Assembly: GCA_014361195.1 (NCBI GenBank)
Contig: JACIWA010000003.1
Span: 43,681-107,680 of the forward strand
Source of the DNA: Thermoplasmatales archaeon
GTDB taxonomy: Archaea > Thermoplasmatota > E2 > UBA202 > JdFR-43
Direction: 5' to 3'
DNA: 64,000 nt
The position numbers were made by a program, and so were the translations under genes. Of this stretch, positions 29,766 to 61,128 are shown in pieces. Each line of letters starts with the position of its first letter. Position 1 is the first letter of the stretch. Below the pieces are notes generated by a model that was not told the DNA's origin, ran no database searches, and was given only the letters and a program-made list of their open reading frames with translations.

Positions 29766-29874
29766 CCCGGCGTAACTCAGACTGGTAGAGTGGCGGACTG
29801 TAGTTGCATCCCTTGGGCTATAACCCACCGCCGCGGAAATCCGCAAGTCGCTGGTTCAAATCCGGCCGCCGGGA
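29766..29874 (+). tRNA. tRNA-Tyr (anticodon GTA) with a 35-nt intron at the canonical 37/38 position
   Basis: Acceptor CCCGGCG/CGCCGGG with C1:G72 (archaeal Tyr identity pair) and discriminator A; anticodon stem GCGGA ... TCCGC split by an insertion at 29804-29838; mature loop CTGTAGA; T-arm GCTGGTTCAAATCCGGC. Confidence 0.8.
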
Positions 29875-44615: not shown

Positions 44616-45575
44616 TTGGGGATAAAAATGGAAGAAATGTACGATGTTATAGTTGTTGGAGGTGGGCCTGCTGGTTTGACAACTGCTATCATGTGTGCAA
44701 GCAGGATGCTTAAAACGCTTGTGCTTGAAAGTGGGAAATGGGGTGGATTGCCCGCTACTCTATACCCGAGTAAAGTGATACCAAATTATCCAGGATTTCC
44801 GGAAGGTATAACCGGAATTGAACTTGTGAGGAAATGGATAAAGCAAGCAAGGGAGAGCAAATATATTACAATGGTCAGGGAAAGAGTTATTAAAATAGAG
44901 AAAGGAGGTGTTGTTAAAACAGAGGAAAATGAATATCATGGAAAGACAATTGTTATAGCAACTGGAACACGCCCGCAGGAGCTTGGCATAGAAGGAGAGA
45001 GTAAATTCAATAAAGGAGACAAAGGGGTTTATTACTATGTTACCCATAGAGAGGATTTCATAGGGAGTAAAGTTCTTGTTGTGGGAGGGGGAGATACTGC
45101 GGTTGATGCATCACTTGATTTAGTTGACCTTGCTGAAGAAATAACAATAATTCACAGGAGAGATAGATTCAGGGCTTTAGATGAAAATGTGAAGAAGATG
45201 GAGGAAAGCAAGATAAATATAATGCTAAATACAGAGCTTGAAGAAATAAGAGGAAAGGATAAAGTTGAGGAAGCCATTCTTTTCAACAACAAAACAGGAG
45301 AAAGAAAGACATTGAAAGTAGATAAAATAGTTCTTGCGGTTGGTCTAAAACCAAATACAGAAATGTTTGAAGAACTTGGAATAAAAACAGATGAAAAAGG
45401 ATATATAATAACCGATCACATGCAGCGCACAAATGTTGAAGGAGTTTTTGCGGTGGGAGATATCGTGAGGGGGGCATTCCGCCTTCTCATTGTTGGCGCA
45501 GCCCACGGAGCAATAGCATCCCAAAAGATATATGAATATGTAAGGAAGCCATATTGGGCGGGAGAAATCAGCTGA
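44616..45575 (+). CDS. Thioredoxin-reductase-like FAD/NAD(P)-binding oxidoreductase (no redox-active CxxC seen)
   Basis: 319 aa; FAD GxGxxG (VIVVGGGPAG), NAD(P) GxGxxA (VLVVGGGDTAVD), C-terminal FAVGDI; the CATC-type disulfide of true TrxR is absent. Confidence 0.7.
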   Translation: MGIKMEEMYDVIVVGGGPAGLTTAIMCASRMLKTLVLESGKWGGLPATLYPSKVIPNYPGFPEGITGIELVRKWIKQARESKYITMVRERVIKIEKGGVVKTEENEYHGKTIVIATGTRPQELGIEGESKFNKGDKGVYYYVTHREDFIGSKVLVVGGGDTAVDASLDLVDLAEEITIIHRRDRFRALDENVKKMEESKINIMLNTELEEIRGKDKVEEAILFNNKTGERKTLKVDKIVLAVGLKPNTEMFEELGIKTDEKGYIITDHMQRTNVEGVFAVGDIVRGAFRLLIVGAAHGAIASQKIYEYVRKPYWAGEIS

Positions 45576-48500
45576 ACATCCTTCTAATCCTCTTATAATA
45601 AGGTAATTCAGAGTACTTGAAATCTATCTTGAAATCTACCCCAATATCTGCGTCGCAAATTTCTATTCCTTTTTCCAAAATTCTCTCTTTCAATTCTTCA
45701 AAATATTTATTTTTTTCAAAATTTAAAAAGCATATTTTCTTCAATTTTTCTGCATTAAAATCCATGATTATTCCCAAATCAAGTATATCCTCAACTTCAA
45801 AAGGAGTAAAAAATTCGTGATTGAATTTTATTTCTGGGTCAATTTCTATTGATTTTGCAAATATTTCAATTTCTTTCTCTTTTTCTTCATAATCAATAGC
45901 ATTTTTAATGCATTCATTTCCACATATTCCGCAACCCAGACAAGCTCTGCATGCCAAGCATCTATTTGCTTCACTAACAGCGGTTTTTTTATCAAAACCT
46001 TTCTCAACTTCCTTAAATGTGCTTATCCTTTCATCAATGCTTATCTCCTCAATATTTTTTCTCTTTTCTTTTCCAAAAATTGATAAAACAACATTTCTTT
46101 TCATGATATCAACGTCTTCATAACTTGCTATCATTCTATTTATATCTCTTTCAACAGGATCAAAATCTATTTTTTTGCCATGTAAATAGGCATCTATTGC
46201 CTTTGCAACTCTTCTTCCCCATGCAACCGCTTCTATTACTATAGATGGGCCACTCACCGCATCTCCTCCCGCAAAAACTCCCGGCAGAGATGTTGTTCCA
46301 GTATTTTCATCAACATAAATCAATCCATCCTTCTTTATTTCATCTGGCAGAAATGATAGATCAGGTTGCTGACCAATTGCAGAAATAACAACATCCGCCT
46401 CAATGAAAAACTCACTGCCTTTCTTTGGAACAGGTTTTCTTCTCCCACTTTCATCTGGCTCTCCTAGCTCCATCTTCACACATTCAATTTTCTCAACGCT
46501 TTCTTTTCCAACAATTTTTAAAGGAGCGGTTAGGAAAAGAAAATTCACTCCCTCTTCTTCTGCATATCTTATTTCTTCCTCGCGAGCGGGCATTTCCTGC
46601 CTGCTCCTTCTATATAAAATTGTCACATCGCATCCAAATCTTATTGCACACCTTGCAGCATCTATTGCAACATCTCCTCCACCTATAACAACAACTTTCT
46701 TCCCTGAAATAATTGCCCTTACATTTTCTGGATATATATTTACTTCTCTTAAGAAATCAACTCCAGGTATAACTCCTTTTAAATTTTCCCCTTCTATACC
46801 CATCTTTCTGCTCTTATGAGCTCCTACTCCAATAAATATTGCATCAAAATTCTTCCTGATCTCTTCAAAAGATATATCCTTTCCTATCCTACAATTCAAC
46901 TGTATCTCAACACCCATTTCAAGAATTGCATTTATTTCTCTATTCAGCACATCTTTTGGAAGCCTATAGGGAGGAATGCCAACCGCGAGCATTCCCCCTG
47001 CAACAGGTAGTGCTTCAAAAATTTTAACTTTATACCCCATTCTTGCAAGTTCATATGCAACAGTTAAACCCGCTGGGCCTGAGCCAATTACCGCAATCTT
47101 ATATTTACTATTTTCATTTACTGGCATTTTTCCGAGATCAATTTTTCCCTTATTTTCCCACTCCCAATCCGCAACAAATCTCTTCAATAACCTTATTGAA
47201 ATTGCCCCATCAATTCCATTTCTCCTGCAAATTTCCTCACAGGGATGAGGACACACCCTTCCAAGCACACCTGGCAAAGGAAGGCGCTCTCTTATTAAAT
47301 TTATTGCCCCTTCAAAATCTCCTTCCGCAATTCTCGCCACATATCCTCGAACATCAACATGTGCAGGGCAATTAGTTTGGCAGAAAGGGCTCTCCTTCTC
47401 AAGGAAAAATGTGCTTGGTGCGCCATTTCTTCCATAAATTGCTTTCCTTGAAAAAATAGTTTGCTCCCTATCAACTGTCCTTACAGGGCATATTTCATAG
47501 CATATATTGCAGTTGTTGCAGTTTTCATTAACTCTTGTAGGATATTTTATTATTTTTACAACCCCATCCCTTATGCTTTTTACAATTGAATTGTTTGCAA
47601 TAAATATTTTTCCTTCCTTTACTAAGGCCAGAAACTCGTCATATTTGCAATCATCGTTTAAAGAGGAGAGGTGCTTCCTTATGGTATATTTATTTATTGA
47701 TGGATATTTCTCAACAATAACAACATTTTCTCCATTTTTTGATAATTCAATCGCCTTGTTTATGCCATATGCTCCTCCTCCTATTATCACATGTGCCTTC
47801 TTCAATTCGCTTATATCTTTTGTTTCGCTTATATCTAATGAAAAATCTTTTTCCTCTTTTTTTATTTCATTTTCTAATAAAAATACATATTTTCCATTTT
47901 CCTCTCTGAAAGATAATTCCCCATTTTTTATCATATCAAGCAAATATAAATATAGAATTTTTTTATCAATAAACTTCGATATTTCATCAAATCCTTTTCC
48001 TTCATTGATTAAAAATTTTATTGTTTCTATATTCATCTCATCTCTTAAAATTTCATCGCCTATTCTGTCAAACTCATAATTTGTATAAATTTCATCATAT
48101 TTATTTCCAAGGAATGTGAGCATTCTGTGCTTTCCCGCAATAATTCTTGCTCTTGGTTTAATTGAAACATTGTATGCAACTTTAAGAAGGGTATCATCTT
48201 TCAACTCCTCTTTCAATGGCCCGAGCTTTTCAATTTCTCTTGAAAATTCATCAACAATCCTTGCAAATTTTTCTCCCTCAGAAGCAGAAATCCATTCCAG
48301 CCTTAAGCGAGATGGATTAACCCCCGCAAATTTAAGTAGCTTTTTTGCAACATAAATCTTCCCTATTGTATAATAATTTCCAGTGACATAATGGCAGTCT
48401 CCAAGATGACAACCTCCAACAAGAACACCATCAACACCTTTTAGAAATGCTTTAATAATGAAAAATGGCTCAACCCTGGTTGAGCACATAACGCGAACAA

Positions 48501-48594
48501 CTCTTATTGTAGGAGGATATTGATATCTGCTCACTCCCGCCAGATCCGCGCCCGCATAACTGCACCAGTTGCAGAGTAGGCCAAGTATTTTCAA
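45568..48594 (-). CDS. Multidomain oxidoreductase: N-terminal MvhD (hydrogenase delta-subunit) domain fused to a GltD/NfnB/SudA-like FAD-NAD(P)H-FeS oxidoreductase
   Basis: 1008 aa; MvhD signature LCNWCSYAGADLAG...CSTR...GGCHLGDCHY at the N-terminus; GltD-type FeS region (FCQTNCP...GRVCPHPCEEIC) followed by KIAVIGSGPAGL and VVVIGGGDVAIDAAR nucleotide-binding motifs; C-terminal CLACRACLGCGIC cluster. Confidence 0.8.
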   Translation of the reverse strand: MKILGLLCNWCSYAGADLAGVSRYQYPPTIRVVRVMCSTRVEPFFIIKAFLKGVDGVLVGGCHLGDCHYVTGNYYTIGKIYVAKKLLKFAGVNPSRLRLEWISASEGEKFARIVDEFSREIEKLGPLKEELKDDTLLKVAYNVSIKPRARIIAGKHRMLTFLGNKYDEIYTNYEFDRIGDEILRDEMNIETIKFLINEGKGFDEISKFIDKKILYLYLLDMIKNGELSFREENGKYVFLLENEIKKEEKDFSLDISETKDISELKKAHVIIGGGAYGINKAIELSKNGENVVIVEKYPSINKYTIRKHLSSLNDDCKYDEFLALVKEGKIFIANNSIVKSIRDGVVKIIKYPTRVNENCNNCNICYEICPVRTVDREQTIFSRKAIYGRNGAPSTFFLEKESPFCQTNCPAHVDVRGYVARIAEGDFEGAINLIRERLPLPGVLGRVCPHPCEEICRRNGIDGAISIRLLKRFVADWEWENKGKIDLGKMPVNENSKYKIAVIGSGPAGLTVAYELARMGYKVKIFEALPVAGGMLAVGIPPYRLPKDVLNREINAILEMGVEIQLNCRIGKDISFEEIRKNFDAIFIGVGAHKSRKMGIEGENLKGVIPGVDFLREVNIYPENVRAIISGKKVVVIGGGDVAIDAARCAIRFGCDVTILYRRSRQEMPAREEEIRYAEEEGVNFLFLTAPLKIVGKESVEKIECVKMELGEPDESGRRKPVPKKGSEFFIEADVVISAIGQQPDLSFLPDEIKKDGLIYVDENTGTTSLPGVFAGGDAVSGPSIVIEAVAWGRRVAKAIDAYLHGKKIDFDPVERDINRMIASYEDVDIMKRNVVLSIFGKEKRKNIEEISIDERISTFKEVEKGFDKKTAVSEANRCLACRACLGCGICGNECIKNAIDYEEKEKEIEIFAKSIEIDPEIKFNHEFFTPFEVEDILDLGIIMDFNAEKLKKICFLNFEKNKYFEELKERILEKGIEICDADIGVDFKIDFKYSELPYYKRIRRMFS

Positions 48595-50264
48595 TCTATC
48601 ACCTCTATTTCCGCAACTATTTGCTCATCTCTGAAATGCTTCATATCAATTGCTTTATGTATGCAGGATGAAGAGCATGCCCCGCATCCCTTACAAGCAG
48701 CGGGTATATTTTCAGCAACTTTCTTACCATTTTTTTCAACAATTATCATTGCTCCATATGGACAAACTTCAACACACATTCCACAGCCCATGCATTTATT
48801 TTCATCAATATATGGCGTATATGGCTCAACTTTCACAAAACCATTTAACATAGGAATGGATGCCCTTCCAGCAGCTGCAAGAGCTTGAATTTTTGCTTCC
48901 TCAATTGTTGCGGGCGCCCTGCAGGAACCACACATGTAAATTCCATCTGTTGCAAAATCAACAGGGCGCAACTTTACATGGGCCTCAAAGAAAAAGCCAT
49001 CTAAACCAAGAGGAACTTTTAGCATTTGGGATATTTTTTTAGCGTCTTCGCTTTCTACAAGAGGAGTGGAAAGAATAACCAGATCCGCAGGCAATTCAAT
49101 TTTTCTCCTGAGCCCTGGATGATACAATCCAACAAATATTTTGCCATCTTTTCTTTCAATTGATGAAACTGTTGGAATGCTATCACTAACTCTTATGAAC
49201 CTAACACCTTCTTCTCTTGCCTTCCTCACATATTCTTCATATTTTACTCCATAACTCTGCAAACCCTTATGAATTATATATACATTTGAATCAGGAATCA
49301 TTTTCTTAATTATCCTTGCATTTTTCACCGAGTTCATACAGCATATCCTTGAGCAATACCTTACTCTTTCCCCTCTCCCTCCAACACATTGTATAAAAAC
49401 AAAATCATTTCCTTTTAATTTATTCTCCTTAAGCATTTTTTCAAGCTCAATCTGGGTTATTATATTTTCATATTCCTGATAATTATACATATATGTTGGC
49501 TGATATGGCTTTGCTCCAATTGCAACAATTATTGTTCCTACCTTTATTTCCTTATTTATTTTCCCTCTTATTAGCACGTTGAAATTTCCTATATAGCCAT
49601 CAATTTTTTCAACCTTGCTTGATAAATATATATTTATGTTCCTGTACTTTTTAACTTCCTCAACAGCATCTTTTAGCACTTTGCTCGCTTCTTCATCTTC
49701 TGGATATACCTTATATATATAATTCAATATTCCCCCGAGTCTATCCTCTTTTTCAACTAAATGCACCTCAATTCCCTGCTTTGCAAGGGCAACAGCAGAA
49801 GTTAATCCAGAAATGCCTCCCCCTATAATAAGGCAGGATTTTTCAACAGGTATTTTTATTTCTTCTAATGGCTCTAATAAGCGGGCTTTTGCAACTCCCA
49901 TTCTTATTAAATCCTTTGCTTTTTCTGTTGCCTTCTCCCTTTCCTTTTGATGAACCCATGAGCATTGGTCGCGAATATTAACAAATTCAAATAAAAATTT
50001 ATTCAACCCAGCCATCTCACAAGCTTTTCTGAAAAGTGGCTCATGCGTTCTTGGCGTGCAGGATGCAACAACAACCCTGTCAAGCTTATATTCCTTTATT
50101 GCATTAATTATTTCCTGCAGACCTGCATTGGAGCATGTGTACATATTTTCCTTTACATAAACCACGTCTGGCAAGCTCTTTGCATACTCACACACCACTG
50201 GTACATCTAAAAAGCCCGCTATATTTGTACCGCAATCACAAACAAAAACCCCTATTCTAGGCAT
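48591..50264 (-). CDS. Heterodisulfide reductase subunit A-like flavoprotein (HdrA/QmoB-like, with C-terminal 2x[4Fe-4S] ferredoxin domain)
   Basis: Start taken at MPRIGVFVCDCGTNIAG (8-nt overlap ATGCCTAG with the upstream gene); FAD motif IIGGGISGL; HdrA Cys signature CVGGRGERVRYCSRICC; CMGCGMCVEVCP and CKGCGACSSSC ferredoxin motifs. Confidence 0.8.
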   Translation of the reverse strand: MPRIGVFVCDCGTNIAGFLDVPVVCEYAKSLPDVVYVKENMYTCSNAGLQEIINAIKEYKLDRVVVASCTPRTHEPLFRKACEMAGLNKFLFEFVNIRDQCSWVHQKEREKATEKAKDLIRMGVAKARLLEPLEEIKIPVEKSCLIIGGGISGLTSAVALAKQGIEVHLVEKEDRLGGILNYIYKVYPEDEEASKVLKDAVEEVKKYRNINIYLSSKVEKIDGYIGNFNVLIRGKINKEIKVGTIIVAIGAKPYQPTYMYNYQEYENIITQIELEKMLKENKLKGNDFVFIQCVGGRGERVRYCSRICCMNSVKNARIIKKMIPDSNVYIIHKGLQSYGVKYEEYVRKAREEGVRFIRVSDSIPTVSSIERKDGKIFVGLYHPGLRRKIELPADLVILSTPLVESEDAKKISQMLKVPLGLDGFFFEAHVKLRPVDFATDGIYMCGSCRAPATIEEAKIQALAAAGRASIPMLNGFVKVEPYTPYIDENKCMGCGMCVEVCPYGAMIIVEKNGKKVAENIPAACKGCGACSSSCIHKAIDMKHFRDEQIVAEIEVID

Positions 50265-51531
50265 TGCACCACTCCCCCGCCCTGCATGCGGCAGCGCTTG
50301 CCTGATAAACACTTTCTGTTATATCTTTAGGGGCACAGCAACAACCTGCTGCATATATTCCTTTCCTTGTTGTTTCAACACCATTTGTTTTAATGAACCC
50401 ATGTTCATCAAGCTCTATTCCAAGGATTTTTGAAATTTCTGAATTGGTATCTGATGGCATTATAGGGGTTGCAAGAATAACCATTTCTACTTCAAGCTCT
50501 TTCACCTTCCCCTCATTTTCATCTTCATAATATATTATCAAATTTTTAGTATTTTTATCCTCAATTATTTCTCCTGGACGAGCATGTATATATGTAATTT
50601 TATAATCCTTCTCCCCTCTTTTGCTATACTCATAAAATCTTTTGCTAAAGATTCTTAAATCTGAATAAAATATGAAGGACTCAATATCATTATAATGCTC
50701 ATTTGCTAGCATTGCACTTTTTATAGATACCATACAGCAAACAGAAGAGCACCATCTGCATCTTCTAACATCTCTTGAGCCTACACATTGAATAAATGCA
50801 ATCTTTTTAGGTCTTCTTCCATCAGGAGCACATTTCAAATGTCCATGAGTTGGACCAGATGCGTTTATAAGCCTTTCATATTCAATCCAAGTATGAACAT
50901 TTGCAAATTTTCCATAGCCATATTCTTTTATATCATATGGCTCATATGCTTTTAAACCCGTAGCAACAATTATTGAAGCAACTTCAATTTCAATTGTTTT
51001 ATCTTCCTGACTATAATCTATTGCTTTTGCCTTGCATATTTTCTGACATAGCCCGCACCTATTCTTAGTTAATTTCAGGCAATATCTCTTATCAATTGTT
51101 GCTTTCCTTGGAACCGCTTGAGGAAATGGAAGAAAAATTGCCTTTCTTTTATCGATATAGTTATTATATTCATTTGGCACTTCTGTAGGACATTTTTCCA
51201 TGCAATCACCGCATCCAGTGCATTTGCTAGCATCAACATATTTTGCCCTCCTCTTCACTTTAACCTTAAAATTTCCCGCATTTCCATTAAGCCCAACAAC
51301 TTCAGAATATTCAAGTATCTCTATATTTGGATGAGATGCACATTCATTCATTTTAGGAGCAAGAATGCATATACTGCAGTCATTTGTTGACATTGTCTTA
51401 TCTAACAAAGCCATCCTCCCACCGATGCTGGGCTCCTTTTCAACTAAATAAACATGTATACCTCTATCCGCTAAATCAAGCGCCGCCTGAATGCCCGCAA
51501 CCCCTCCGCCAATAACAAGCACGCTTTTCAT
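50257..51531 (-). CDS. Heterodisulfide reductase subunit A-like flavoprotein (HdrA/QmoA-like)
   Basis: 424 aa; FAD motif VIGGGVAGIQAALDLA, DCSICILAPK, HdrA Cys signature CVGSRDVRRCRWCSSVCC, one ferredoxin-type CTGCGDCMEKCP motif. Confidence 0.8.
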   Translation of the reverse strand: MKSVLVIGGGVAGIQAALDLADRGIHVYLVEKEPSIGGRMALLDKTMSTNDCSICILAPKMNECASHPNIEILEYSEVVGLNGNAGNFKVKVKRRAKYVDASKCTGCGDCMEKCPTEVPNEYNNYIDKRKAIFLPFPQAVPRKATIDKRYCLKLTKNRCGLCQKICKAKAIDYSQEDKTIEIEVASIIVATGLKAYEPYDIKEYGYGKFANVHTWIEYERLINASGPTHGHLKCAPDGRRPKKIAFIQCVGSRDVRRCRWCSSVCCMVSIKSAMLANEHYNDIESFIFYSDLRIFSKRFYEYSKRGEKDYKITYIHARPGEIIEDKNTKNLIIYYEDENEGKVKELEVEMVILATPIMPSDTNSEISKILGIELDEHGFIKTNGVETTRKGIYAAGCCCAPKDITESVYQASAAACRAGEWCNA

Positions 51532-52586
51532 ATTGCTTCTCCAATTGCTTCAACAAAATCCTTTACTTCGAGCTCATAATTTTCATGACTCATGGTACAT
51601 AGGAAATGAATTTTGCATTTGGGACAGGTTGTTATTAGCATTTTTGATTGCTGTTCCGCTTCTAAAAGCCTTTCTTTCCTTATTTGCTCCGCCTTCCAAT
51701 CACAGGCCATCCATGCGGAAGTGGAACAACAAATTGCTTTCTCTTTTGAATGGGACATTTCTTTTATTTCATATCCCGCATTCCTTAATGCTTCTCTTGG
51801 CTCTTCATAAATTCCTAGATGGCGACCTAATCTACAGGAATCATGGAATGTGCACTCTTTATTTAAATTTCCCTCAATTTTGCTATTTTTAAGGAATTCA
51901 GAAATATGCATCATTTCAATGCCAGCTTTGTAATCATATTTAAAAGTTCTATAGCATTCAGGGCAGGAGAATATTATTTTTTCAAAATTTTTTATTTTTT
52001 CCATGTTCTTTTTCTTCATCTTTTCAAAAATCTCATTATTTCCATTCCATAATGCGTCATGCCCACAGCATGAAAATAAAACAGCGGGAGCAATGTCAAA
52101 ATAATTCAAAATTTTTATTGTGTTTTCTGCAATTGAAATTCCACTGAATCCGATATTTTCAAAAAATACATCATACAATGGCAGACAGCCAGCAAAATAA
52201 AGAATTTTTGATTTTTCATCTATTTCTACATTTTTTATGCTAAAATTTAAATCATTTTTTTCAAATAGAATGGGCAATTTTCCAAAAATATTTTCATGAG
52301 CTGGAATTCCAAAATTTTTATTTTCCATTGCAATCTCTCTCACTTTTCTTATAAAAGATAAAAAATCAACACCAGATGGACATATTTCCTCACAAATTCC
52401 ACATGTCAAACATTTCCATATATCATTTGAATAAACCAATTCATCTTCTATACCTATAAGAGATCTTTCAACAATGCTTGCAGGAGAGAATTTGCCATAA
52501 ACTCTTGTAACAGGGCATGCGGAGCTACATTTCCTGCATTCAACACAATAGTATGCCTTACTCTCATTTACTATCTCTTTAATCAT
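51528..52586 (-). CDS. HdrC/HdrB-like fusion protein (2x[4Fe-4S] ferredoxin domain + CCG cysteine-rich domains)
   Basis: Two CxxCxxCxxxCP motifs (CVECRKCSSACP, CLTCGICEEICP) followed by CCG-domain-like Cys patterns (FAGC, SCCGHD, HDSCRLGRH, CCSTS); start placed at MIKEIV (8-nt overlap with the upstream ferredoxin); a longer start at 52637 is possible. Confidence 0.7.
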   Translation of the reverse strand: MIKEIVNESKAYYCVECRKCSSACPVTRVYGKFSPASIVERSLIGIEDELVYSNDIWKCLTCGICEEICPSGVDFLSFIRKVREIAMENKNFGIPAHENIFGKLPILFEKNDLNFSIKNVEIDEKSKILYFAGCLPLYDVFFENIGFSGISIAENTIKILNYFDIAPAVLFSCCGHDALWNGNNEIFEKMKKKNMEKIKNFEKIIFSCPECYRTFKYDYKAGIEMMHISEFLKNSKIEGNLNKECTFHDSCRLGRHLGIYEEPREALRNAGYEIKEMSHSKEKAICCSTSAWMACDWKAEQIRKERLLEAEQQSKMLITTCPKCKIHFLCTMSHENYELEVKDFVEAIGEAI

Positions 52587-53049
52587 TTTTAACACCAAAT
52601 AAATGGATAATTTTTGAAAATTTTTTGAATTTTTCACTATCTGAAATCTTATCAGAAAAAATGCATTTCCTAACCTCTATTTTTTTCCCCTCATATAACT
52701 TTTCAATTGCAATTCCGATATCAAATCTTCTCTCGCAAAAAATTACTGAATTTTCCTTCTCAATAAATTCATACAAGCATTTTTCACATTCAAATTCATT
52801 TACTTCAATTTTTTCAGATAAATAAAAAAATGATTCATCTTGTATGTGATATATGGCGGAAGATGGACATGAAGCAACACATACACCACAACCCTTGCAT
52901 GAAATATCATTAACCGAGACAATTTTTTTCTCTTTATCATATGAGAAGCAATCGCATATTGATAAACATATTCTGCATTTTGAGCATTTTTCTTGATCTA
53001 TTGAGACTGGAAATTGTTTATAAAGGAGCATCGCTGAAATAATTCGCAT
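52579..53049 (-). CDS. 4Fe-4S ferredoxin-domain protein
   Basis: 156 aa; CSKCRICLSIC and CKGCGVCVASCP cluster motifs plus additional Cys pairs. Confidence 0.6.
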   Translation of the reverse strand: MRIISAMLLYKQFPVSIDQEKCSKCRICLSICDCFSYDKEKKIVSVNDISCKGCGVCVASCPSSAIYHIQDESFFYLSEKIEVNEFECEKCLYEFIEKENSVIFCERRFDIGIAIEKLYEGKKIEVRKCIFSDKISDSEKFKKFSKIIHLFGVKND

Positions 53050-53074
53050 CTCTTATTTATTATTTACTTTGACA

Positions 53075-53845
53075 TTAAATAGCATGCTTATATTTAGCAT
53101 ACTCAAAAACTGGCCCATCAATACATGAATAATAACTTCCAACAATACAATGCCCACATTTACCTATTCCACATTTCATTCTTCTCTCAACCGATAGATA
53201 GATTTTTTCTTCATTTGCTCCCCTTTTTATAGCTCTTTCTATAACTGGTTTAAACATTGCGGGAGGGCCACATATCAGAATATATTCATTTCCATCAAAG
53301 ACTATTTCATCCAATAGCTCAGTCACAAACCCTCTTCTTGCTCCTTCTTTTTCAAAAATTTCATATACTTCAGCATGTCTCTTCCATTCCTCAATTTCTT
53401 CCTGAAATAGCATATCTCGCCTGCTTCTTGCCCCAAAAAGAATTCTCAACTGATTATAAATTTTTGAATGAATTGCTTCCTTTATAAAACTTCTTAAAGG
53501 TAATATACCGAGGCCTCCAATTATTGCAACAATATCTTTTCCTTTCAATTTTTCCATCGGAAAACCATTTCCAAAAGGTCCTCTATAAAAGATATATTCA
53601 ATTTTATCTAAATTGTAAAGAAAGGAGGTTGCTCTTCCAACATTTCTTACACAAATTTCAAAAAAATTTTTTTCATATGGAGGAGAACATATTGAGATGG
53701 GAAATTCTCCAATTCCAGCAAGAGATATTTCAACAAATTGCCCAGGAATAAAATTAAAATTTTCCGCTTCAATCCTTAAAAATTTTTTATCATCTATCTT
53801 CTTATTTTCTATTACCCTCCCTTTTACTGGCATGAATGGGTTCAT
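53075..53845 (-). CDS. NfnA/PyrK/sulfhydrogenase-gamma-like FAD-NAD(P)H oxidoreductase subunit with C-terminal [2Fe-2S] motif
   Basis: 256 aa ferredoxin-reductase fold (VAIIGGLGILP, ICGPPAM) and C-terminal CGIGKCGHC...C cluster. Confidence 0.75.
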   Translation of the reverse strand: MNPFMPVKGRVIENKKIDDKKFLRIEAENFNFIPGQFVEISLAGIGEFPISICSPPYEKNFFEICVRNVGRATSFLYNLDKIEYIFYRGPFGNGFPMEKLKGKDIVAIIGGLGILPLRSFIKEAIHSKIYNQLRILFGARSRRDMLFQEEIEEWKRHAEVYEIFEKEGARRGFVTELLDEIVFDGNEYILICGPPAMFKPVIERAIKRGANEEKIYLSVERRMKCGIGKCGHCIVGSYYSCIDGPVFEYAKYKHAI

Positions 53846-53868: not shown

Positions 53869-55104
53869 TTATTTTTTAACAGCGGATTTAATGGCTGGCT
53901 CTCCTCCCGCATGCCAGCTTCTCCTCGGTCTTATTTTTACTAAATGACTTACTTCTGTTATATCATCAACTATTAATGCAACCCCTTTTTCACTCCCCAT
54001 TTTCTTAATTGCCTCTCCTATACTCTCCCTCATATAAGTGGGTCTCACATTATTCATCGCATCAATATCCTCTTGTGAGGTCAAACGATGGCAAATTATT
54101 ATATCCGCATGAGAAAGCACTTCCGCGTCCATTGAACTAACTCTTTGTGTAGCCAGAATTAAGCTAAGGCCCGGCTGGCGCCCCTGGCGGAGCCATTTCC
54201 TGATGAAAACATCTTTTGTTATCTTATCTTCTTTTGGCAGAAAAATGTGAGCTTCATCTATTGCAAGCCATATGAAAGGCAGATTTTGCTGGGTTTGAGA
54301 AATTCCCATTTCTCTTTCCTCATCTCTTTTTCTTTCAATAATCCTTTCATAAAAAATAATTTCTCCTAAGATGCTTAAAATTACTTCCTTTATGCTCTCA
54401 TCATAAGCGCTTAGATCAATTATAGATATTTTTCCTTTTTTGGCTATATCCGCCAGATTTATTCCTTCTTTACCAAATATTTTCAAATTTTTTGCCATGA
54501 TAAAAAAATTTATGCAGGCCAACTTAGTTTCTTTGCTTATCTCATCATCATTCCTTATTTTCTCTATTACATCATCTATACTATATTTCCCCTCCATATC
54601 ACCTATTGCTCTTGATATCGCAACTCCTTCCGCAGAAAGAGAGGATATTCCAAAGAGCCTGCACCAGTGAAATGGCTTAAGGAAGGATGTAGCTATTAAA
54701 ATTTCTTTTGCATCTATTCCAAATCTCCTGTAATAATTCACCAGCTCAGGAGATGAAAATATTTCAATTTCCACCCCGCTCGCCTCAATTCCCCATCTCT
54801 CCAATTTTTCCTCCTCCTTCCTGTTCGGGAAAATACTGGACCAAAATATTCCTAATGTGTCCGCAACAATAAAGGAAATATTTTTCCTTATTTCTTCATC
54901 AAGAGAATAAAATTCCTCAAGGAGAACTCCTATAGTATATGATTTTCCATACCCTCTTTTCCCGCATAAAAAAATCACATGTGGCTTTGAAATGTCCAAA
55001 TACACGGGCGCCCCGAGCGAGCCATCCAGCGCATAATATCTCCCAATATTCAAAACCGCTTTTTCATTTCCTTCTTTAGCCCCCAGGATATATTTTCTAT
55101 CCAT
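53869..55104 (-). CDS. HerA/FtsK-like P-loop ATPase (DUF87 family)
   Basis: 411 aa; Walker A HVIFLCGKRGYGKSYT, Walker B IWLAIDEAHIF, arginine-finger region RQGRQPGLSLILATQRVS. Confidence 0.65.
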   Translation of the reverse strand: MDRKYILGAKEGNEKAVLNIGRYYALDGSLGAPVYLDISKPHVIFLCGKRGYGKSYTIGVLLEEFYSLDEEIRKNISFIVADTLGIFWSSIFPNRKEEEKLERWGIEASGVEIEIFSSPELVNYYRRFGIDAKEILIATSFLKPFHWCRLFGISSLSAEGVAISRAIGDMEGKYSIDDVIEKIRNDDEISKETKLACINFFIMAKNLKIFGKEGINLADIAKKGKISIIDLSAYDESIKEVILSILGEIIFYERIIERKRDEEREMGISQTQQNLPFIWLAIDEAHIFLPKEDKITKDVFIRKWLRQGRQPGLSLILATQRVSSMDAEVLSHADIIICHRLTSQEDIDAMNNVRPTYMRESIGEAIKKMGSEKGVALIVDDITEVSHLVKIRPRRSWHAGGEPAIKSAVKK

Positions 55105-55139
55105 AAAATATATATTTAAACAATAAATTAATTTTTTGA

Positions 55140-57236
55140 ATGAATTATAGGATAATTAAGGAAGGGGGACTTAACTTAATTGAAATAGATTGCTATTCAT
55201 GTAATTATTCCTCCTCTCTTTTGGATGAAAACTGTAGGAGAGAATTGATTGAAATAATTGGAAGGGAAGGAAAAATCGATAGAATAAAATTAAATCATTA
55301 TTTTGTGAAGATAATAGAAGGAGAGGCTCTGGAAAATCTTTTTGAGATTTCAAAATTCAAGGAAGAATTGTCCTCTCTTAGAGCAAATGATTGCAATGAT
55401 TGTATTTTTAGCAAAGAAATAAAGGGTATATTGGAATTGGCTGATAAAGATCAGATAAAATCTTTTTTTAGTCTCTCAAATCTATTTTATAAACTTAAGA
55501 AACCTTTTATTTTCAGAAAAGAAGAATGCGAGGAATGTAGGAGTGAAAATTTAAGGAAGATGGAGAATATAATAAGAAAATTTGAGAAATTGAGGCATAT
55601 CTCTTATGAAGATATAAGAATTTATCTAAGGCCAATATTTTTTGATACATCAATTGAATATACTCCTCCAAATGATGCAATTTTTATTAAAAGTTATGAA
55701 ATAAAAAGAGAAAGAGGTTCAATAAAAGTTTCTCTGTATGAATTAAAAAGAAGAGCGGAGAAATTATATTTTATCATACCTCCAGAGTATAATATAAATC
55801 TGGAGGAACTTAAAATACTTATTAAAGCAAAGGAAAAGCTTGCAAAACACAGACCACCAGATACTTCATTCATGGATCCTGAAAGGACGAGGGAATATTT
55901 TTACAGGTTTGGAAAGGAAAAGATAATAGAGATAGCAAAAAATATAAATTATAAGATCAGTAGCGAAAAAATAGATTTTTTGGCGGATATATTTGCAAAA
56001 TACACATCTGGGTTTGGAATACTTGAAGATTTACTGGCGGATAAAAAAATACAGGATATTTATATAAATGCTCCAGTGAGTTACAATCCCCTGCACATAG
56101 TACTTGAGGGAGAAGAATATGTAACAAATATCTATTTTTCGGAGAATGATATCGAAGCACTTTCATCGCGCCTTAGAAGCCTTAGCGGAAGAGGTTTTTC
56201 TGAGGCAATTCCAGTGATGGATGTTGGGCTCCCTGAATATGACTCACGTATAACCGCAATTTCTCCTCCAATAACTCCAAAAGGAATAGCATTTGCAATA
56301 AGGAGACATTCAAGCGAGCTATGGACTCTCCCAAAATTTATTTCATGCAAGATGCTCTCTCCTTTAGCTGCGGGCATGCTGAGCTTCTTTATTGATGGGC
56401 AGGCGACAATTCTAATTGCGGGCTCGAGGGGGGCGGGCAAAACCTCTTTGCTATCTTCTCTAATGCTTGAGATACCGCAGAGGTATAGGATATTAACTAT
56501 AGAAGATACGCCTGAGTTGCCAGTTGATGAATTGCAGAGGTTGGGATATAAGATTCAATCTCTCGTCACTAAATCAGCTGTCAGTAACGAAGGTATAGAT
56601 GAAAAAACCGCAATTAAAACCGCTTTAAGATTGGGTGAATCAGTTATAATTCTTGGGGAAGTTCGTGGGGAGGAGGCAAAAATATTGTTTGAGGCAATGA
56701 GGATAGGGGCAGCTGGAAATTTAGTTATGGGAACAATTCATGGCTCAACTTCAAGAGATGTTTTTGATAGAATTGTTTATGATATTGGCGTGCCACCAGT
56801 TTCATTCAAAGCAACAGATGTGGTTGTAATTGCTTCACCAATAAGAGTAGGTGGTGGAATTGAAAGATTGAGAAGGGTTATACAAATATCTGAGGTTAGT
56901 AAGAAGTGGGAAAGGGAGGATGTTGATAAAATTTTTTATGATATAATGCAATATGATTACTCAAAGGATATGCTTGAGGCAACAGATATTTTTTATATGG
57001 GACAATCAGAAATAATAGGGAAAATAGCAAGAAAATGGGGAATCCGCATGGAGGATGCAATAGAAAATATAAAAATGAGGGCAAGGATGAAAGAAAAAAT
57101 TGCTGAGATTGGAAAAACAGATGCAAAATTTGTAAGGGATGCAAACAATTTTTATTGGTCTTCTCTTGAAGAAACTAAAAATTTTTATGAAATCGAGGAA
57201 AAATGGAATGAATGGTTGAAGAAACATGCAATTTGA
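55140..57236 (+). CDS. Type II/IV secretion-family ATPase (archaeal type IV pilus / archaellum assembly ATPase, FlaI/PilB-like) with long Cys-rich N-terminal extension
   Basis: 698 aa; Walker A AGSRGAGKTS, RILTIEDTPEL, Walker B/His-box VIILGEVRGEE...GTIHGS; the N-terminal ~300 aa carry CxxC-type pairs (CYSC...C, CNDC, CEEC). Confidence 0.85.
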   Translation: MNYRIIKEGGLNLIEIDCYSCNYSSSLLDENCRRELIEIIGREGKIDRIKLNHYFVKIIEGEALENLFEISKFKEELSSLRANDCNDCIFSKEIKGILELADKDQIKSFFSLSNLFYKLKKPFIFRKEECEECRSENLRKMENIIRKFEKLRHISYEDIRIYLRPIFFDTSIEYTPPNDAIFIKSYEIKRERGSIKVSLYELKRRAEKLYFIIPPEYNINLEELKILIKAKEKLAKHRPPDTSFMDPERTREYFYRFGKEKIIEIAKNINYKISSEKIDFLADIFAKYTSGFGILEDLLADKKIQDIYINAPVSYNPLHIVLEGEEYVTNIYFSENDIEALSSRLRSLSGRGFSEAIPVMDVGLPEYDSRITAISPPITPKGIAFAIRRHSSELWTLPKFISCKMLSPLAAGMLSFFIDGQATILIAGSRGAGKTSLLSSLMLEIPQRYRILTIEDTPELPVDELQRLGYKIQSLVTKSAVSNEGIDEKTAIKTALRLGESVIILGEVRGEEAKILFEAMRIGAAGNLVMGTIHGSTSRDVFDRIVYDIGVPPVSFKATDVVVIASPIRVGGGIERLRRVIQISEVSKKWEREDVDKIFYDIMQYDYSKDMLEATDIFYMGQSEIIGKIARKWGIRMEDAIENIKMRARMKEKIAEIGKTDAKFVRDANNFYWSSLEETKNFYEIEEKWNEWLKKHAI

Positions 57237-59064
57237 AAAATTATGTAGAAAGGTTGTTGGAAAATTGAAAATAAAAGAGGAAGATAAAGAGAGAGTAAAT
57301 AAAAGAGTATCTAAGGAATTTTTAGATAGCTTGCATTTCACTGGAATTGACCTTGAACCCTATGAAATAATCTATTTTTCTTATATCTGCGCATTAATTT
57401 CTTTTTTAATTACATTCCTTATTTCTATTTCAATTTTTGCAATTTATGGTTTTTCAATAAGAAATATGGGTTTTTTAACAATTTTCTTGATAATTTTGCT
57501 TCTTTTTGTTTTTCCTCTTCTTTCATTGCACTATGTAAGTGAATACCCTAAAATAAAGGCAAAATATATGAAAGCACGCTCCCTGGGCGATATACCGGAG
57601 ATAATATCTTATCTTGTAATGTATCTAAAATTAGTTCCAAATTTAGAAAGAGCATTTAATTTTGCAGCAAAAGAGTCAAATTCTTCTCTTTCAAAAGATT
57701 TAAGGAAAATTATATGGGATCTACAGATAAGAATACATAAAAGTATAGATGATGCAATAACTTATTTTGCAAATTTATGGGGGGAATGGAATGAATATTT
57801 AAGGAGGGCAATTCATTTAATAAGAAATTCTGTAAAGGAAAAAGAAAATGAAAGAGTTGCTACATTAGATAGAGCTCTTGATGTTGTTCTGGAAGGAACA
57901 AGGGATTTAATGATTGATTTCTCCAATAAACTTCATCAGCCAACTCTTATAATATATTCTCTTGGCTTTATGCTCCCTATTGCAACAATGGCAATGCTTC
58001 CAGCGGTTAATGTAATCGGCCTCAGATTCTCTATCTTTCATATAATCATATTTTATGATATTCTTCTACCTGTTTTCCTGTTTTTTTATATAAGAAAAAT
58101 TCTTGCAAATCGCCCCGCAACTTTCAACCCACCTTCAATTCCATCAAAAAAAATCAGGAACATAAAAAATATCTTAATTTCAATTTTTCTTTTCCTTCCT
58201 TTCCTAGCCCTTTTTCTTCGTCCCCCTACTTCTCTCTTTTCTAAAAATTTTTTCCTGATATGGGGTGTGGCAATTTCAGTCTCGATTTACTGCCTCCTTA
58301 CCTATAACAAAGATAAAAAGGAAAGAGATAAAATAAGGAAAATGGAGAAAGAATTTGGTGACGCCCTCTATATCCTCGGCAGGAGGGTGGCGGAAGGCAA
58401 GCCCCCAGAAGAAGCATTTAATCATGTAGCCCAAGCAATGAAAGGCTCTACTATAGGAGAAGTTTTTGCAAAAGCATTTTATAATCTGATTTCCAGAAGG
58501 ATAAAAATTGAGAATGCGTTTTTTGATGAAGAATATGGAGCTCTTGCCAATGTTTATTCAGATAGAATAAAGGCTATAATAAAAATTTTTATAGAAGGAG
58601 TTAAGAAAAGCTATGAATATGCTGGAATTGCAATAGTTAAAATAGCGGATCATCTAAAACAGCTTCAGGATGTGGAAAAGAAAATAAGAGACAGCTTATC
58701 TTCAATAACTTCTTCTCTTCGTTCAACCGCGACATTTTTTGCTCCTTTGATAGGGGGAGTAACTCTTGGAATGACAAATCTAATGCAAAAAATTCTTTCT
58801 TCATTGAATTTTTCATTTTCTGAGGATGTAACAATTCCAATATTTGGAAAGATATTTTATGTTGAAACAACAGGTGATTTTGCTATTGTAATTGGAATCT
58901 ATATTATTCTTCTTGTATTTTTGATATTGAGGCTCGCAAATGGAATAGATGAGGGGGATGATAAAATAGAATATTTCTATGGAGTTGGAAAATCTCTCCC
59001 AATAGCGGTTTTCATTTTTACAATTTCCTCCGTGTTTTCTTACATGATTTTTTCAAGTTTATGA
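57226..59064 (+). CDS. Type II secretion system F-domain membrane platform protein (FlaJ/TadC/PilC-like)
   Basis: 612 aa polytopic membrane protein with two T2SSF-like cytoplasmic helical domains separated by TM blocks; overlaps the upstream ATPase gene. Confidence 0.8.
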   Translation: MQFEKLCRKVVGKLKIKEEDKERVNKRVSKEFLDSLHFTGIDLEPYEIIYFSYICALISFLITFLISISIFAIYGFSIRNMGFLTIFLIILLLFVFPLLSLHYVSEYPKIKAKYMKARSLGDIPEIISYLVMYLKLVPNLERAFNFAAKESNSSLSKDLRKIIWDLQIRIHKSIDDAITYFANLWGEWNEYLRRAIHLIRNSVKEKENERVATLDRALDVVLEGTRDLMIDFSNKLHQPTLIIYSLGFMLPIATMAMLPAVNVIGLRFSIFHIIIFYDILLPVFLFFYIRKILANRPATFNPPSIPSKKIRNIKNILISIFLFLPFLALFLRPPTSLFSKNFFLIWGVAISVSIYCLLTYNKDKKERDKIRKMEKEFGDALYILGRRVAEGKPPEEAFNHVAQAMKGSTIGEVFAKAFYNLISRRIKIENAFFDEEYGALANVYSDRIKAIIKIFIEGVKKSYEYAGIAIVKIADHLKQLQDVEKKIRDSLSSITSSLRSTATFFAPLIGGVTLGMTNLMQKILSSLNFSFSEDVTIPIFGKIFYVETTGDFAIVIGIYIILLVFLILRLANGIDEGDDKIEYFYGVGKSLPIAVFIFTISSVFSYMIFSSL

Positions 59065-59965
59065 ATAAAGATGTCTATTTTGCAAAATCTTTTCATAGAT
59101 TACCAATCTCTTCAAGCGCTTCTGACAATTATTGCATTAGCCATATTCGCCCGCATTCACAATTCCCTTAATAATCATTTTGATATTACCCCCAATAATC
59201 TCTAATTTAACCAAAAGAATAAAGAAGGCAGTTTATTCCCATTTCATTGCATTTCCGGATGACTCTTTTAGAAAAATCGCTAGCAATTATCACTCCCGCA
59301 ATACATTTATGAAATCGAGCAATAGGGATAGAATCTTTGATAAGAATGTCCACATGTAACTCTGGCAAGGCTTTTTCACCAAGGAATTCCAAATCTTTTG
59401 GACTTATAAAAGATTGGAATAAGAATTCCTTAAAGTAAAAAATTCAGGTGGTGAGACAAGAGATTTGTTCCATGTAAGAAAATTGTAAATACTTCATAAT
59501 TATCGCTCCGAAAAAATGTGTTTTTCTGTAACCTCCTCTTAAAAGCAAATTTTCCGCAACATAAGCAAACTCTGGCCTTACCATAGGTTCAACAAATTCA
59601 AGGAGTGGTTTTAAATAGAGGTGAAAAAGAAAATAATAGGTTTCCTCTCTAACCTACTATTGCAGCATATAAAAAAGAGATATACTCTCCTGTTTGAATG
59701 TTTGTGAATGCCCATAATCCATTTATACTATTTGTAAACCCTGCAAGAGATATTTTATACATAAATCCAAATTGGTTCTATTTGATACAGAAATTAAAAA
59801 GTAAGACATATTATTCACCCTTGCCAAGTTTTATCTCCTTAAATATAACTTTTTAAATCTTAATGAATTTTGTTTAACCTTAAATTGGCAAAATTACCCA
59901 CTTTAAGCTACTTCACTCATGCAAAATCTTATCTATTAGTTTCTTATTTCTTTTTTGGTGTAAAG

Positions 59966-60349
59966 ATGAAGGAAATGGCAGAAGTAAGAGAACTTAAAGA
60001 GAATAGATACATAATCATTGATGATGAGCCTTGCAAAATTCTTAGCATAGCCACTTCAAAGCCAGGGAAACATGGAGAAGCAAAAGCAAGAATAGATGCG
60101 ATCGGTATATTTGATAATCAAAAGAGAAGTGTCATATATCCAGTAAAACATAAGGTCGCAATTCCAATAATTGAGAAAAGGACTGCACAAGTCATATCTG
60201 TAAGAGGAGATAAACTACAATTGATGGACATGGAGACATATGAAACTTTCGAAATGGATATACCAGAGGAATTCAAGGGCAAAGTTGAGGAAGGAAAAGA
60301 AATAGAATATCTGCAGGCGATGGGGAAAAAGAAAATAACAAGAGTATGA
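59966..60349 (+). CDS. eif5a: Translation initiation factor 5A (aIF5A, hypusine-containing)
   Basis: Start placed at internal MKEMAEV (the longer ORF from 59870 adds a non-conserved hydrophobic leader); hypusination loop [13 protein letters not shown]. Confidence 0.85.
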
Positions 60350-61128
60350 AGTTTGCTGATGCAGAAAATAGCTACGAAGATGCAAAGTTTGTTATTATTG
60401 GCATACCATATGAGGATGCAGAAATGTCTTTTAGGAAAGGTACTTCATTTGCACCTGATCACATAAGATATGAAAGCTGGAACTATGAAAGCTATGATTT
60501 AAGAAACAATTTTGACTTGAGCACCGCAAAAATAAATGATGCGGGGAATTTTGGGCTTGATGAAGGAAGGAAATTTGTAAATAAAGTAATATCTGATGGA
60601 AAAATTCCGATTATAGTAGGAGGGGCTCATTCAATTTCACCTTCTATTTTGCCAGATGAAACAGGGGTTGTTATTTTAGACGCACATCTTGATTTTAGAG
60701 AAGAATATTTAGGAGATAAAAATAGCCATGCATGCGCCGCCCGCAGGATTTTTGAGAGGGTAGGAAAGGAAAAAATAGTTTCTTTTGGAATTAGATCCGC
60801 CTGCAAGGAGGAAATTGGGGATGCAAAAAAACTTGGCTTAAAACATTTTTATGCGTGGGAATTTAAAGCGGGGATGGCGGAAAATATTGATTTTGATAAA
60901 ATTTTTTTGAGTATTGATATGGATGTTTTTGACCCGTGTTTTGCTCCAGGTGTAAGCAATCCTGAGCCATTTGGGCTTGGGTATGAAATATTTGATTTTA
61001 TAAAAATTATTTCAAAAAAAGTGCTTGCAATGGATGTTGTTGAAGTATGTCCTCCTTATGATGATGGTAGAGCATCTTTACTTGCAGCAAGAATTATAAG
61101 AGATTTTATTTCATTTAGAAGGTTTTAG
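60346..61128 (+). CDS. speB: Agmatinase (arginase/ureohydrolase family)
   Basis: 260 aa; metal-binding motifs [19 protein letters not shown]; classic coupling with aIF5A. Confidence 0.85.

Follow-up and report, generated by a model that had tools for sequence, protein, structure and literature searches.

A HerA-clade ATPase gene paired with the core of a type IV pilus-like machine in Thermoplasmatota

A divergent three-gene locus and its products

The stretch of DNA analyzed here (64 kb from contig JACIWA010000003.1 of a Thermoplasmatales archaeon, hereafter the window) carries a compact locus in which the gene for a small ATPase of the HerA clade lies head-to-head with two genes for the core of a type IV pilus (T4P)-like machine, namely a secretion ATPase and a polytopic membrane protein (Table 1). 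A previous description of the window, prepared from the letters alone without database searches (the sequence-only reading), had placed these open reading frames (ORFs), a 35-bp divergent gap and an overlapping ATPase/platform pair; the ORF list bears out all three, with the start of the 612-aa gene running 11 bp into the end of the 698-aa gene. The gap is 89% A+T, with four G/C positions in all (AAAATATATATTTAAACAATAAATTAATTTTTTGA), and from its sequence we presume it to be a common bidirectional promoter giving rise to leaderless or short-leader mRNAs. Among relatives the corresponding spacing between the two divergent genes varies from about -80 to +230 bp.

Table 1. Features of the three-gene locus (window coordinates) and motifs of the HerA-clade ATPase (residue numbers)
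Feature	Position	Strand	Source or protein
HerA-clade ATPase, 411 aa	53869-55104	minus	ORF list; same coordinates in the sequence-only reading
TadA/CpaF/FlaI-type secretion ATPase, 698 aa	55140-57236	plus	ORF list and Pfam T2SSE
Polytopic membrane protein (predicted platform), 612 aa	57226-59064	plus	ORF list and fold
Spacer between divergent start codons	55105-55139	none	35 bp, read from sequence
Walker A, GKRGYGKS	aa 48-55		411-aa protein
Walker B, WLAIDEAH	aa 279-286		411-aa protein
RQGRQPG	aa 306-312		411-aa protein
ATQR	aa 318-321		411-aa protein
Conserved C-terminal RPRxSWH(A/G)G			411-aa protein

The 698-aa protein matches the Pfam T2SSE model at 66.7 bits (cutoff 24.9), and its sequence matches in the PDB include CpaF (7e-30), Archaeoglobus GspE (7e-27) and FlaI (4e-22). 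As judged by these similarities it belongs to the T2SSE/TadA-CpaF-FlaI secretion ATPase superfamily and is of the TadA/CpaF/FlaI type. It does not qualify as an archaellum FlaI equivalog, reaching 143 bits against the NCBIfam FlaI cutoff of 550. The protein consists, in order, of an N-terminal extension of about 160 aa, an N-domain and the ATPase core, and its Walker A motif (GSRGAGKT, aa 428-435) is conserved. The extension contains seven cysteines (C18, C21, C32, C85, C88, C130 and C133, arranged as CxxC...C, CxxC and CxxC) that are 87-100% conserved among 61 orthologues, and this Cys-rich N-domain probably binds metal. The identification of this TadA/FlaI-type hexameric ATPase as the motor of the machine is well supported.

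The 612-aa protein gave no match to Pfam, to NCBIfam or, with phmmer, to the PDB; it fails the T2SSF profile (PF00482), and none of its 240 listed homologues carries a precomputed Pfam domain, all being annotated as hypothetical. Its AlphaFold model (pLDDT 82) is all-helical and contains the cytoplasmic helical bundles of the PilC/GspF/TadC type, an assignment in which Foldseek concurs, and the sequence has about 8-9 hydrophobic, transmembrane (TM) segments. The internal duplication expected of such a protein was undetected when one half was aligned with the other by HHalign. In light of the bundle fold, the polytopic topology and the position of the gene directly downstream of that for a T2SSE ATPase, the predicted model gives good support for this protein as the PilC/TadC-type platform of the machine. 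The FlaJ/TadC-like platform envisaged in the sequence-only reading is thus upheld at the level of fold, by the model and Foldseek, and finds no backing at the level of sequence, where no profile matches. Many membrane proteins of 610-680 aa now listed as 'hypothetical' form one large family that can thereby be given a function at the level of fold, as they appear to be divergent PilC/TadC platforms missed by the Pfam model.

The 411-aa protein matches the Pfam DUF87/HerA central domain at 42 bits (cutoff 23.2), and its predicted model (pLDDT 88.6) displays the HerA-type RecA core fold. All motifs previously quoted from it are present (GKRGYGKS, a DEAH-type Walker B, RQGR and TQR), and in the forms given in Table 1 the Walker A, Walker B, RQGRQPG and ATQR motifs are invariant among 37 homologues, which indicates an active ATPase under selection. 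Classification with profile models places it in the HerA/DUF87 clade and outside the other families that had been considered for it: the NCBIfam CedB model gives no match, its scores lie one to two orders of magnitude below the NCBIfam HerA, antiphage HerA, CedD and VirB4 cutoffs, and neither its best fold match nor PF06745 makes it a KaiC/FlaH-type protein. It also differs from the HerA-NurA resection helicase: a HAS barrel is missing (no Pfam match; about 47 residues lie ahead of the P-loop, whereas solved HerA chains have about 147 there), the gene has no NurA, Mre11 or Rad50 neighbour, and the NCBIfam HerA equivalogs score 38-53 bits where their cutoffs are 800-970. That the protein is not the housekeeping HerA is further indicated by a close relative (L094, 11417-13821; 84% identity in the platform protein). 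There, 3.6 kb from the pilus module, a separate 570-aa ATPase with weak HAS-barrel and weak CedB matches adjoins a gene with a weak NurA match, and these two probably constitute the canonical HerA-NurA pair of the lineage.

Conservation of the arrangement and its pilus-gene partners

A genome scan limited to one genome per species and seeded with the HerA-like protein yielded 80 loci, 68 of which are labelled Thermoplasmata, Thermoplasmatota or similar. In sixty of the latter the upstream flank is 2.5 kb or longer, and the divergent upstream T2SSE gene is present in every one of these (60/60); the platform gene follows it in the genome-scan loci wherever the contig is long enough. A reciprocal scan of metagenome contigs, seeded with the platform protein, retrieved 80 further loci, in which the ATPase gene lies directly upstream of the platform gene in 67/67 cases with room for it and the divergent HerA-like gene is found in 46/46, with no exceptions. 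The three proteins are about equally conserved, with median identities to those of the window of 49% (HerA-like), 51% (ATPase) and 47% (platform). The arrangement recurs at 43-57% protein identity, and the genes outside the module vary from clade to clade. Because these 60/60 and 46/46 loci keep the arrangement while the flanking genes differ, the pairing of the HerA-like gene with the pilus core is far beyond chance. The synteny comparison hence extends the linkage, proposed beforehand for a single locus, to all adequately flanked Thermoplasmatota-type loci.

Furthermore, in 53 of the 80 genome loci the gene directly after the HerA-like one, on the same strand, codes for a prepilin peptidase or a pilin-like protein. 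An A24 prepilin peptidase of about 270 aa occupies this position in 11 loci, one of them from a relative with 64% identity, and in most of the 11 the two genes overlap by 4 bp; these peptidases carry IPN and GGGD(V/A)KL motifs and score 46-49 bits against Pfam Peptidase_A24 (cutoff 26.5). In 42 loci a gene follows for a conserved protein of about 190 aa, in which a short charged N-terminus precedes a hydrophobic helix (A-x-E-M-I-P-x-R-L-I...). This family has no significant match in Pfam, NCBIfam or the PDB-profile collection, and its N-terminal helix gives only non-significant matches to bacterial type IV pilins (E 0.16-1.5). Related loci contain further T4P genes as well, namely Pilin_N, DUF7289 and an EarA-like regulator. 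On an ANME-2 contig a homologue of the ~190-aa protein is encoded downstream of the platform gene at a distance of about 1.8 kb, with two ~150-aa pilin-like genes and one divergently oriented gene in between. A coiled-coil membrane protein is also encoded downstream on the ANME-2 contig, where the T2SSE gene is not beside the platform gene. On ANME-2 and Methanoperedens contigs (L089, 7742-12349; L091, 5564-12331) the platform gene is followed by genes for two proteins of about 140-160 aa with '(G/A)-x-(E/G)-LPI' hydrophobic N-termini and sub-threshold matches to Ig-like domains (DUF7382/Big_1).

These partners bear on the suggestion that the locus is a degenerate archaellum locus, retaining FlaI and FlaJ with a substitute for FlaH, which we find scarcely credible. 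FlaI is indeed the best NCBIfam match of the 698-aa ATPase, and the EarA-like protein encoded near some related loci is a homologue of an archaellum regulator. However, the FlaI score is far below its cutoff, a Cys-rich N-domain has not been described for FlaI, the small proteins associated with the locus in relatives are pilin-like with Ig-like domains rather than archaellins, and FlaB, FlaF/G, FlaH and FlaC/D/E are absent from the window. The sequence-only reading had already remarked that no FlaH, FlaF/G or pilin gene stands beside the core, with which both the window scan and the ORF list agree.

The tree of HerA-like proteins tracks taxonomy, from which it follows that the HerA-like gene is vertically inherited; to judge by these sequence comparisons the locus as a whole is chromosomal and vertically inherited, and the remainder of the 64 kb consists of ordinary chromosomal housekeeping genes with a G+C content of 30-40%. 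This has consequences for a possible origin of the locus as a defence or mobile module, either one of the anti-phage HerA systems (Sir2-HerA, DUF4297-HerA, MADS) or an integrated conjugative or viral element. Homology does speak for such an origin, in that the best PADLOC match of the 411-aa protein, spanning all of it, is mad8 (E 1.6e-21), and its C-terminal half aligns to antiphage HerA models of PADLOC and NCBIfam. Moreover, a 389-aa paralogue (32% identity) on the Haloplanus sp. HW8-1 plasmid NZ_CP098519 (L088, 7823-10131), whose gene overlaps that for a 380-aa hypothetical protein, is surrounded by genes for a BREX-type ATPase, a PD-(D/E)XK nuclease, a helicase and AddAB-like proteins. 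The mad8 match and this plasmid context together imply that small HAS-less HerA-like ATPases occur in defence-like islands as well. Nevertheless, we regard a defence or mobile module as very improbable: the protein fails the anti-phage HerA/MADS classification, no effector gene (Sir2, DUF4297, nuclease or methylase) adjoins it, and the locus keeps a stable housekeeping position with no integrase, tRNA-flanked island or composition shift. We rejected the defence explanation on gene context despite the mad8 homology, and a mobile-element origin on searches with the HerA-like protein that gave no match in a phage collection and only distant ones (<=32% identity), in unrelated contexts, among plasmids.

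Relation to known pili and the role of a second ATPase

In architecture the locus resembles the subclade 4F systems among archaeal T4P (Makarova, Koonin and Albers 2016, PMC4858521), whose ATPases have an extra N-terminal cysteine-rich domain. The likeness extends to an ATPase of 620-800 aa with such a domain, a TadC-type platform of about 580-660 aa with about 9 TM segments encoded directly downstream, small pilin-like genes after the platform gene in relatives with pilins often in trans, and a distribution over Methanomicrobia and Methanomassiliicoccales-type Thermoplasmata. There are two differences: no HerA-like ATPase is among the 4F components in PMC4858521, and the platform here is too divergent for Pfam T2SSF. 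In the supplement of that work an arCOG00280 'HerA helicase' does appear, uncommented, next to a 4F pilin in Haloarcula hispanica and close to FlaI in Cenarchaeum. The window shares with 4F the combination of a Cys-rich ATPase with a long TadC protein, and the two proteins are comparable in size to the 4F pair of Haloarcula (619 and 581 aa). Indirect support for a place in 4F comes from the Methanosarcinales relatives, in which the platform gene precedes small pilin-like genes.

Archaeal T4P machines are thought to run on one T2SSE-type ATPase. A full-text literature search retrieved no account of a HerA/DUF87 ATPase as a component of archaeal T4P. According to a 2025 study of Thermoplasmatales pili (PMC12448462), every archaeal pilus operon reported until then had one ATPase gene only, and the presence of two T2SSE-type ATPases in one operon was called unique there. 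The arrangement described here suggests that an archaeal pilus machine has a second ATPase that has so far escaped description. Good support exists for the families and folds assigned to the three proteins, for the invariance of their arrangement and for the same-strand pilus-gene partners in relatives. On the whole we favour the reading, which we give about an even chance of being right, that the locus encodes a subclade 4F-like archaeal T4P machine whose Thermoplasmatota core includes a second, HerA-type ATPase. The three genes would then be the invariant core of a type IV pilus-like filament machine in Thermoplasmatota, with pilins and prepilin peptidase encoded elsewhere in this genome and a HAS-less HerA-clade ATPase with intact catalytic motifs as the obligatorily linked third gene. 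The HerA-like protein would form a cytoplasmic ring and, as the second ATPase of the machine, may cooperate with its motor and platform, serving as an accessory motor or as a switch/regulator and having no part in DNA repair. With a HerA-clade ATPase inseparable from motor and platform across a phylum, there is a testable candidate for a new machine component, which bears on the retraction of archaeal pili and the powering of archaeal DNA uptake.

Among possible roles we favour the accessory motor or switch because of analogies with FlaH/KaiC-like ATPases on the one hand and with VirB4 and pI/Zot on the other. VirB4 and the inovirus pI/Zot proteins belong to the FtsK/HerA superfamily of ATPases and push filament subunits out of the membrane. 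Unlike them, the 411-aa protein lacks an N-terminal membrane or VirB3-binding domain, and its gene lies outside any type IV secretion system or phage gene context. Other archaeal T4P motors have FlaH or KaiC-like ATPases at their side (PMC4858521), and both the FlaI-FlaJ-FlaH system and the KaiC-linked T4P of clades 2 and 4B share with the present locus a T2SSE motor, a platform and a second P-loop ATPase of the RecA fold.

The ring might alternatively be a substrate-translocating motor docked to the T4P platform, acting as a DNA-uptake/export pump or as a retraction or second filament motor; we deem this unlikely, if well worth considering. PilT, to our knowledge, is absent from archaea. If true, such a motor would make the locus a hybrid 'T4P + FtsK/HerA' nanomachine spread across Thermoplasmatota and undescribed in any domain of life. 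The DNA-handling version of this idea, in which the hexamer would be a translocase coupled to the pilus that pumps DNA through or beside the platform in a competence- or transfer-type process, as a functional analogue of the Sulfolobales Ups pili with Ced or of bacterial ComG with ComFA, likewise seems to us an unlikely though serious contender. In the crenarchaeal Ced/Ted systems, too, an archaeal HerA/VirB4-superfamily ATPase is tied to a surface-filament or membrane machine. However, Ced/Ted are homologues of conjugation systems, with a VirB2-like pilin and a VirB6-like channel rather than T2SSE/PilC components, there are no CedA-type genes at the locus, and the 411-aa protein falls outside the CedB, CedD and VirB4 families. 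No ComEC- or CedA-like channel, DNA receptor or nuclease was recognized in the genes called or annotated next to the conserved module, the DNA-related neighbours are not conserved, and what follows the HerA-like gene directly on the same strand encodes a prepilin peptidase or a pilin-like protein rather than a DNA-handling protein. The Ced/Ted-like DNA-transfer proposal of the sequence-only reading therefore fails as a matter of membership and survives as a functional possibility.

Several observations weigh against the favoured reading of a 4F-like machine with a second ATPase. The linkage in related genomes, on which the original proposal turned, holds in all adequately flanked loci of the phylum and is not universal beyond it: the Methanosarcinales orthologues of the HerA-like protein (44-47% identity) are unlinked in 8/10 loci and linked in 2/10, the unlinked ones adjoining EF-2, PolB, SMC, Fic or primase genes, and on one Methanoperedens contig the HerA-like gene is missing although genes for the ATPase, the platform and two pilin-like proteins are present. 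An exhaustive profile search gathered 318 clusters of HerA-like homologues (E<=1e-30). Two distant ones (35-38% identity, from DPANN-like and other archaea) have no nearby pilus genes, their neighbours being informational genes or DUF835, and many homologues, many of them from DPANN, are interrupted by inteins at the P-loop. Inteins are often found in core housekeeping genes. In the window itself, a scan of the whole 64 kb for class III signals found no pilin-like ORF, neither tblastn nor a scan for the GxGD motif turned up an A24 peptidase there, and 23 bp past the HerA-like gene, on the same strand, a string of Hdr-like oxidoreductase genes begins. The 190-aa family, too, was searched for in the window and not found; in its sub-lineage (L008, L093 and L094) the peptidase and 190-aa genes were lost or were never at this site, and the window holds the bare three-gene core.

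The HerA-like family is consequently older and wider than its association with pili, leaving room for an independent function. The protein would in that case be a housekeeping ATPase in its own right, with only the bidirectional promoter region frozen in Thermoplasmatota, and the locus would remain an ordinary minimal pilus core with an unrelated neighbour. The unlinked Methanosarcinales orthologues, the position of distant homologues amid translation and replication genes, the P-loop inteins and an identity of about 45% between phyla, unusually high for a pilus accessory protein, all argue for it. Nonetheless, we consider it distinctly unlikely given that 106/106 loci are linked across a deep clade in which other neighbourhoods are scrambled, that a peptidase or pilin-like gene so often follows directly, and that the ATPase and platform are equally strongly conserved.

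The wider HerA-like family shows further variation in its domain architecture. Homologues from Nanoarchaeia and Aenigmarchaeota (P0371, P0373, P0376, P0404 and P0405) bear one or two LAGLIDADG inteins just after the P-loop, and further members occur as fusions with DUF835 or with an S8 peptidase and a winged helix-turn-helix domain. In one locus (L097) a DUF835 gene lies 3 bp upstream of the HerA-like ATPase gene.

Chromosomal surroundings of the locus

The Hdr-like string comprises six genes on the minus strand (window 45568-53845), coding for a 1008-aa fused MvhD/HdrA/GltD-like protein, two HdrA-like proteins, an HdrB/C-like CCG protein, a ferredoxin and a 256-aa PyrK-like protein. In L008, L093 and L094 the string adjoins the HerA-like gene as well, whereas L009 has the prepilin peptidase gene in between, and it is possible that the string is co-transcribed with the HerA-like ATPase gene in the lineage of the window.

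On the other side, about 900 bp (window 59065-59962) with no ORF longer than 61 aa separate the platform gene from that for aIF5A. In the close relative L093, with which only the final ~48 bp of these 900 align, aIF5A starts 112 bp after the stop codon of the platform gene. The minus-strand frames of the 900 bp hold fragmented ORF pieces, as if a gene had decayed here or part of an insertion had been left behind. Downstream of the pilus module lie aIF5A and agmatinase (59963-61128). In Aciduliprofundum boonei the same pair, aIF5A-SpeB, precedes a clade-2 T4P locus with a pilin and an ATPase (PMC4858521 supplement), and the adjacency of aIF5A-SpeB and pilus genes in both may be remnant synteny of a pilus locus.

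Elsewhere in the window, an Rfam tRNA match of 109 nt on the plus strand (29766-29874; 52.7 bits), which ARAGORN did not report, is probably an intron-containing archaeal tRNA.

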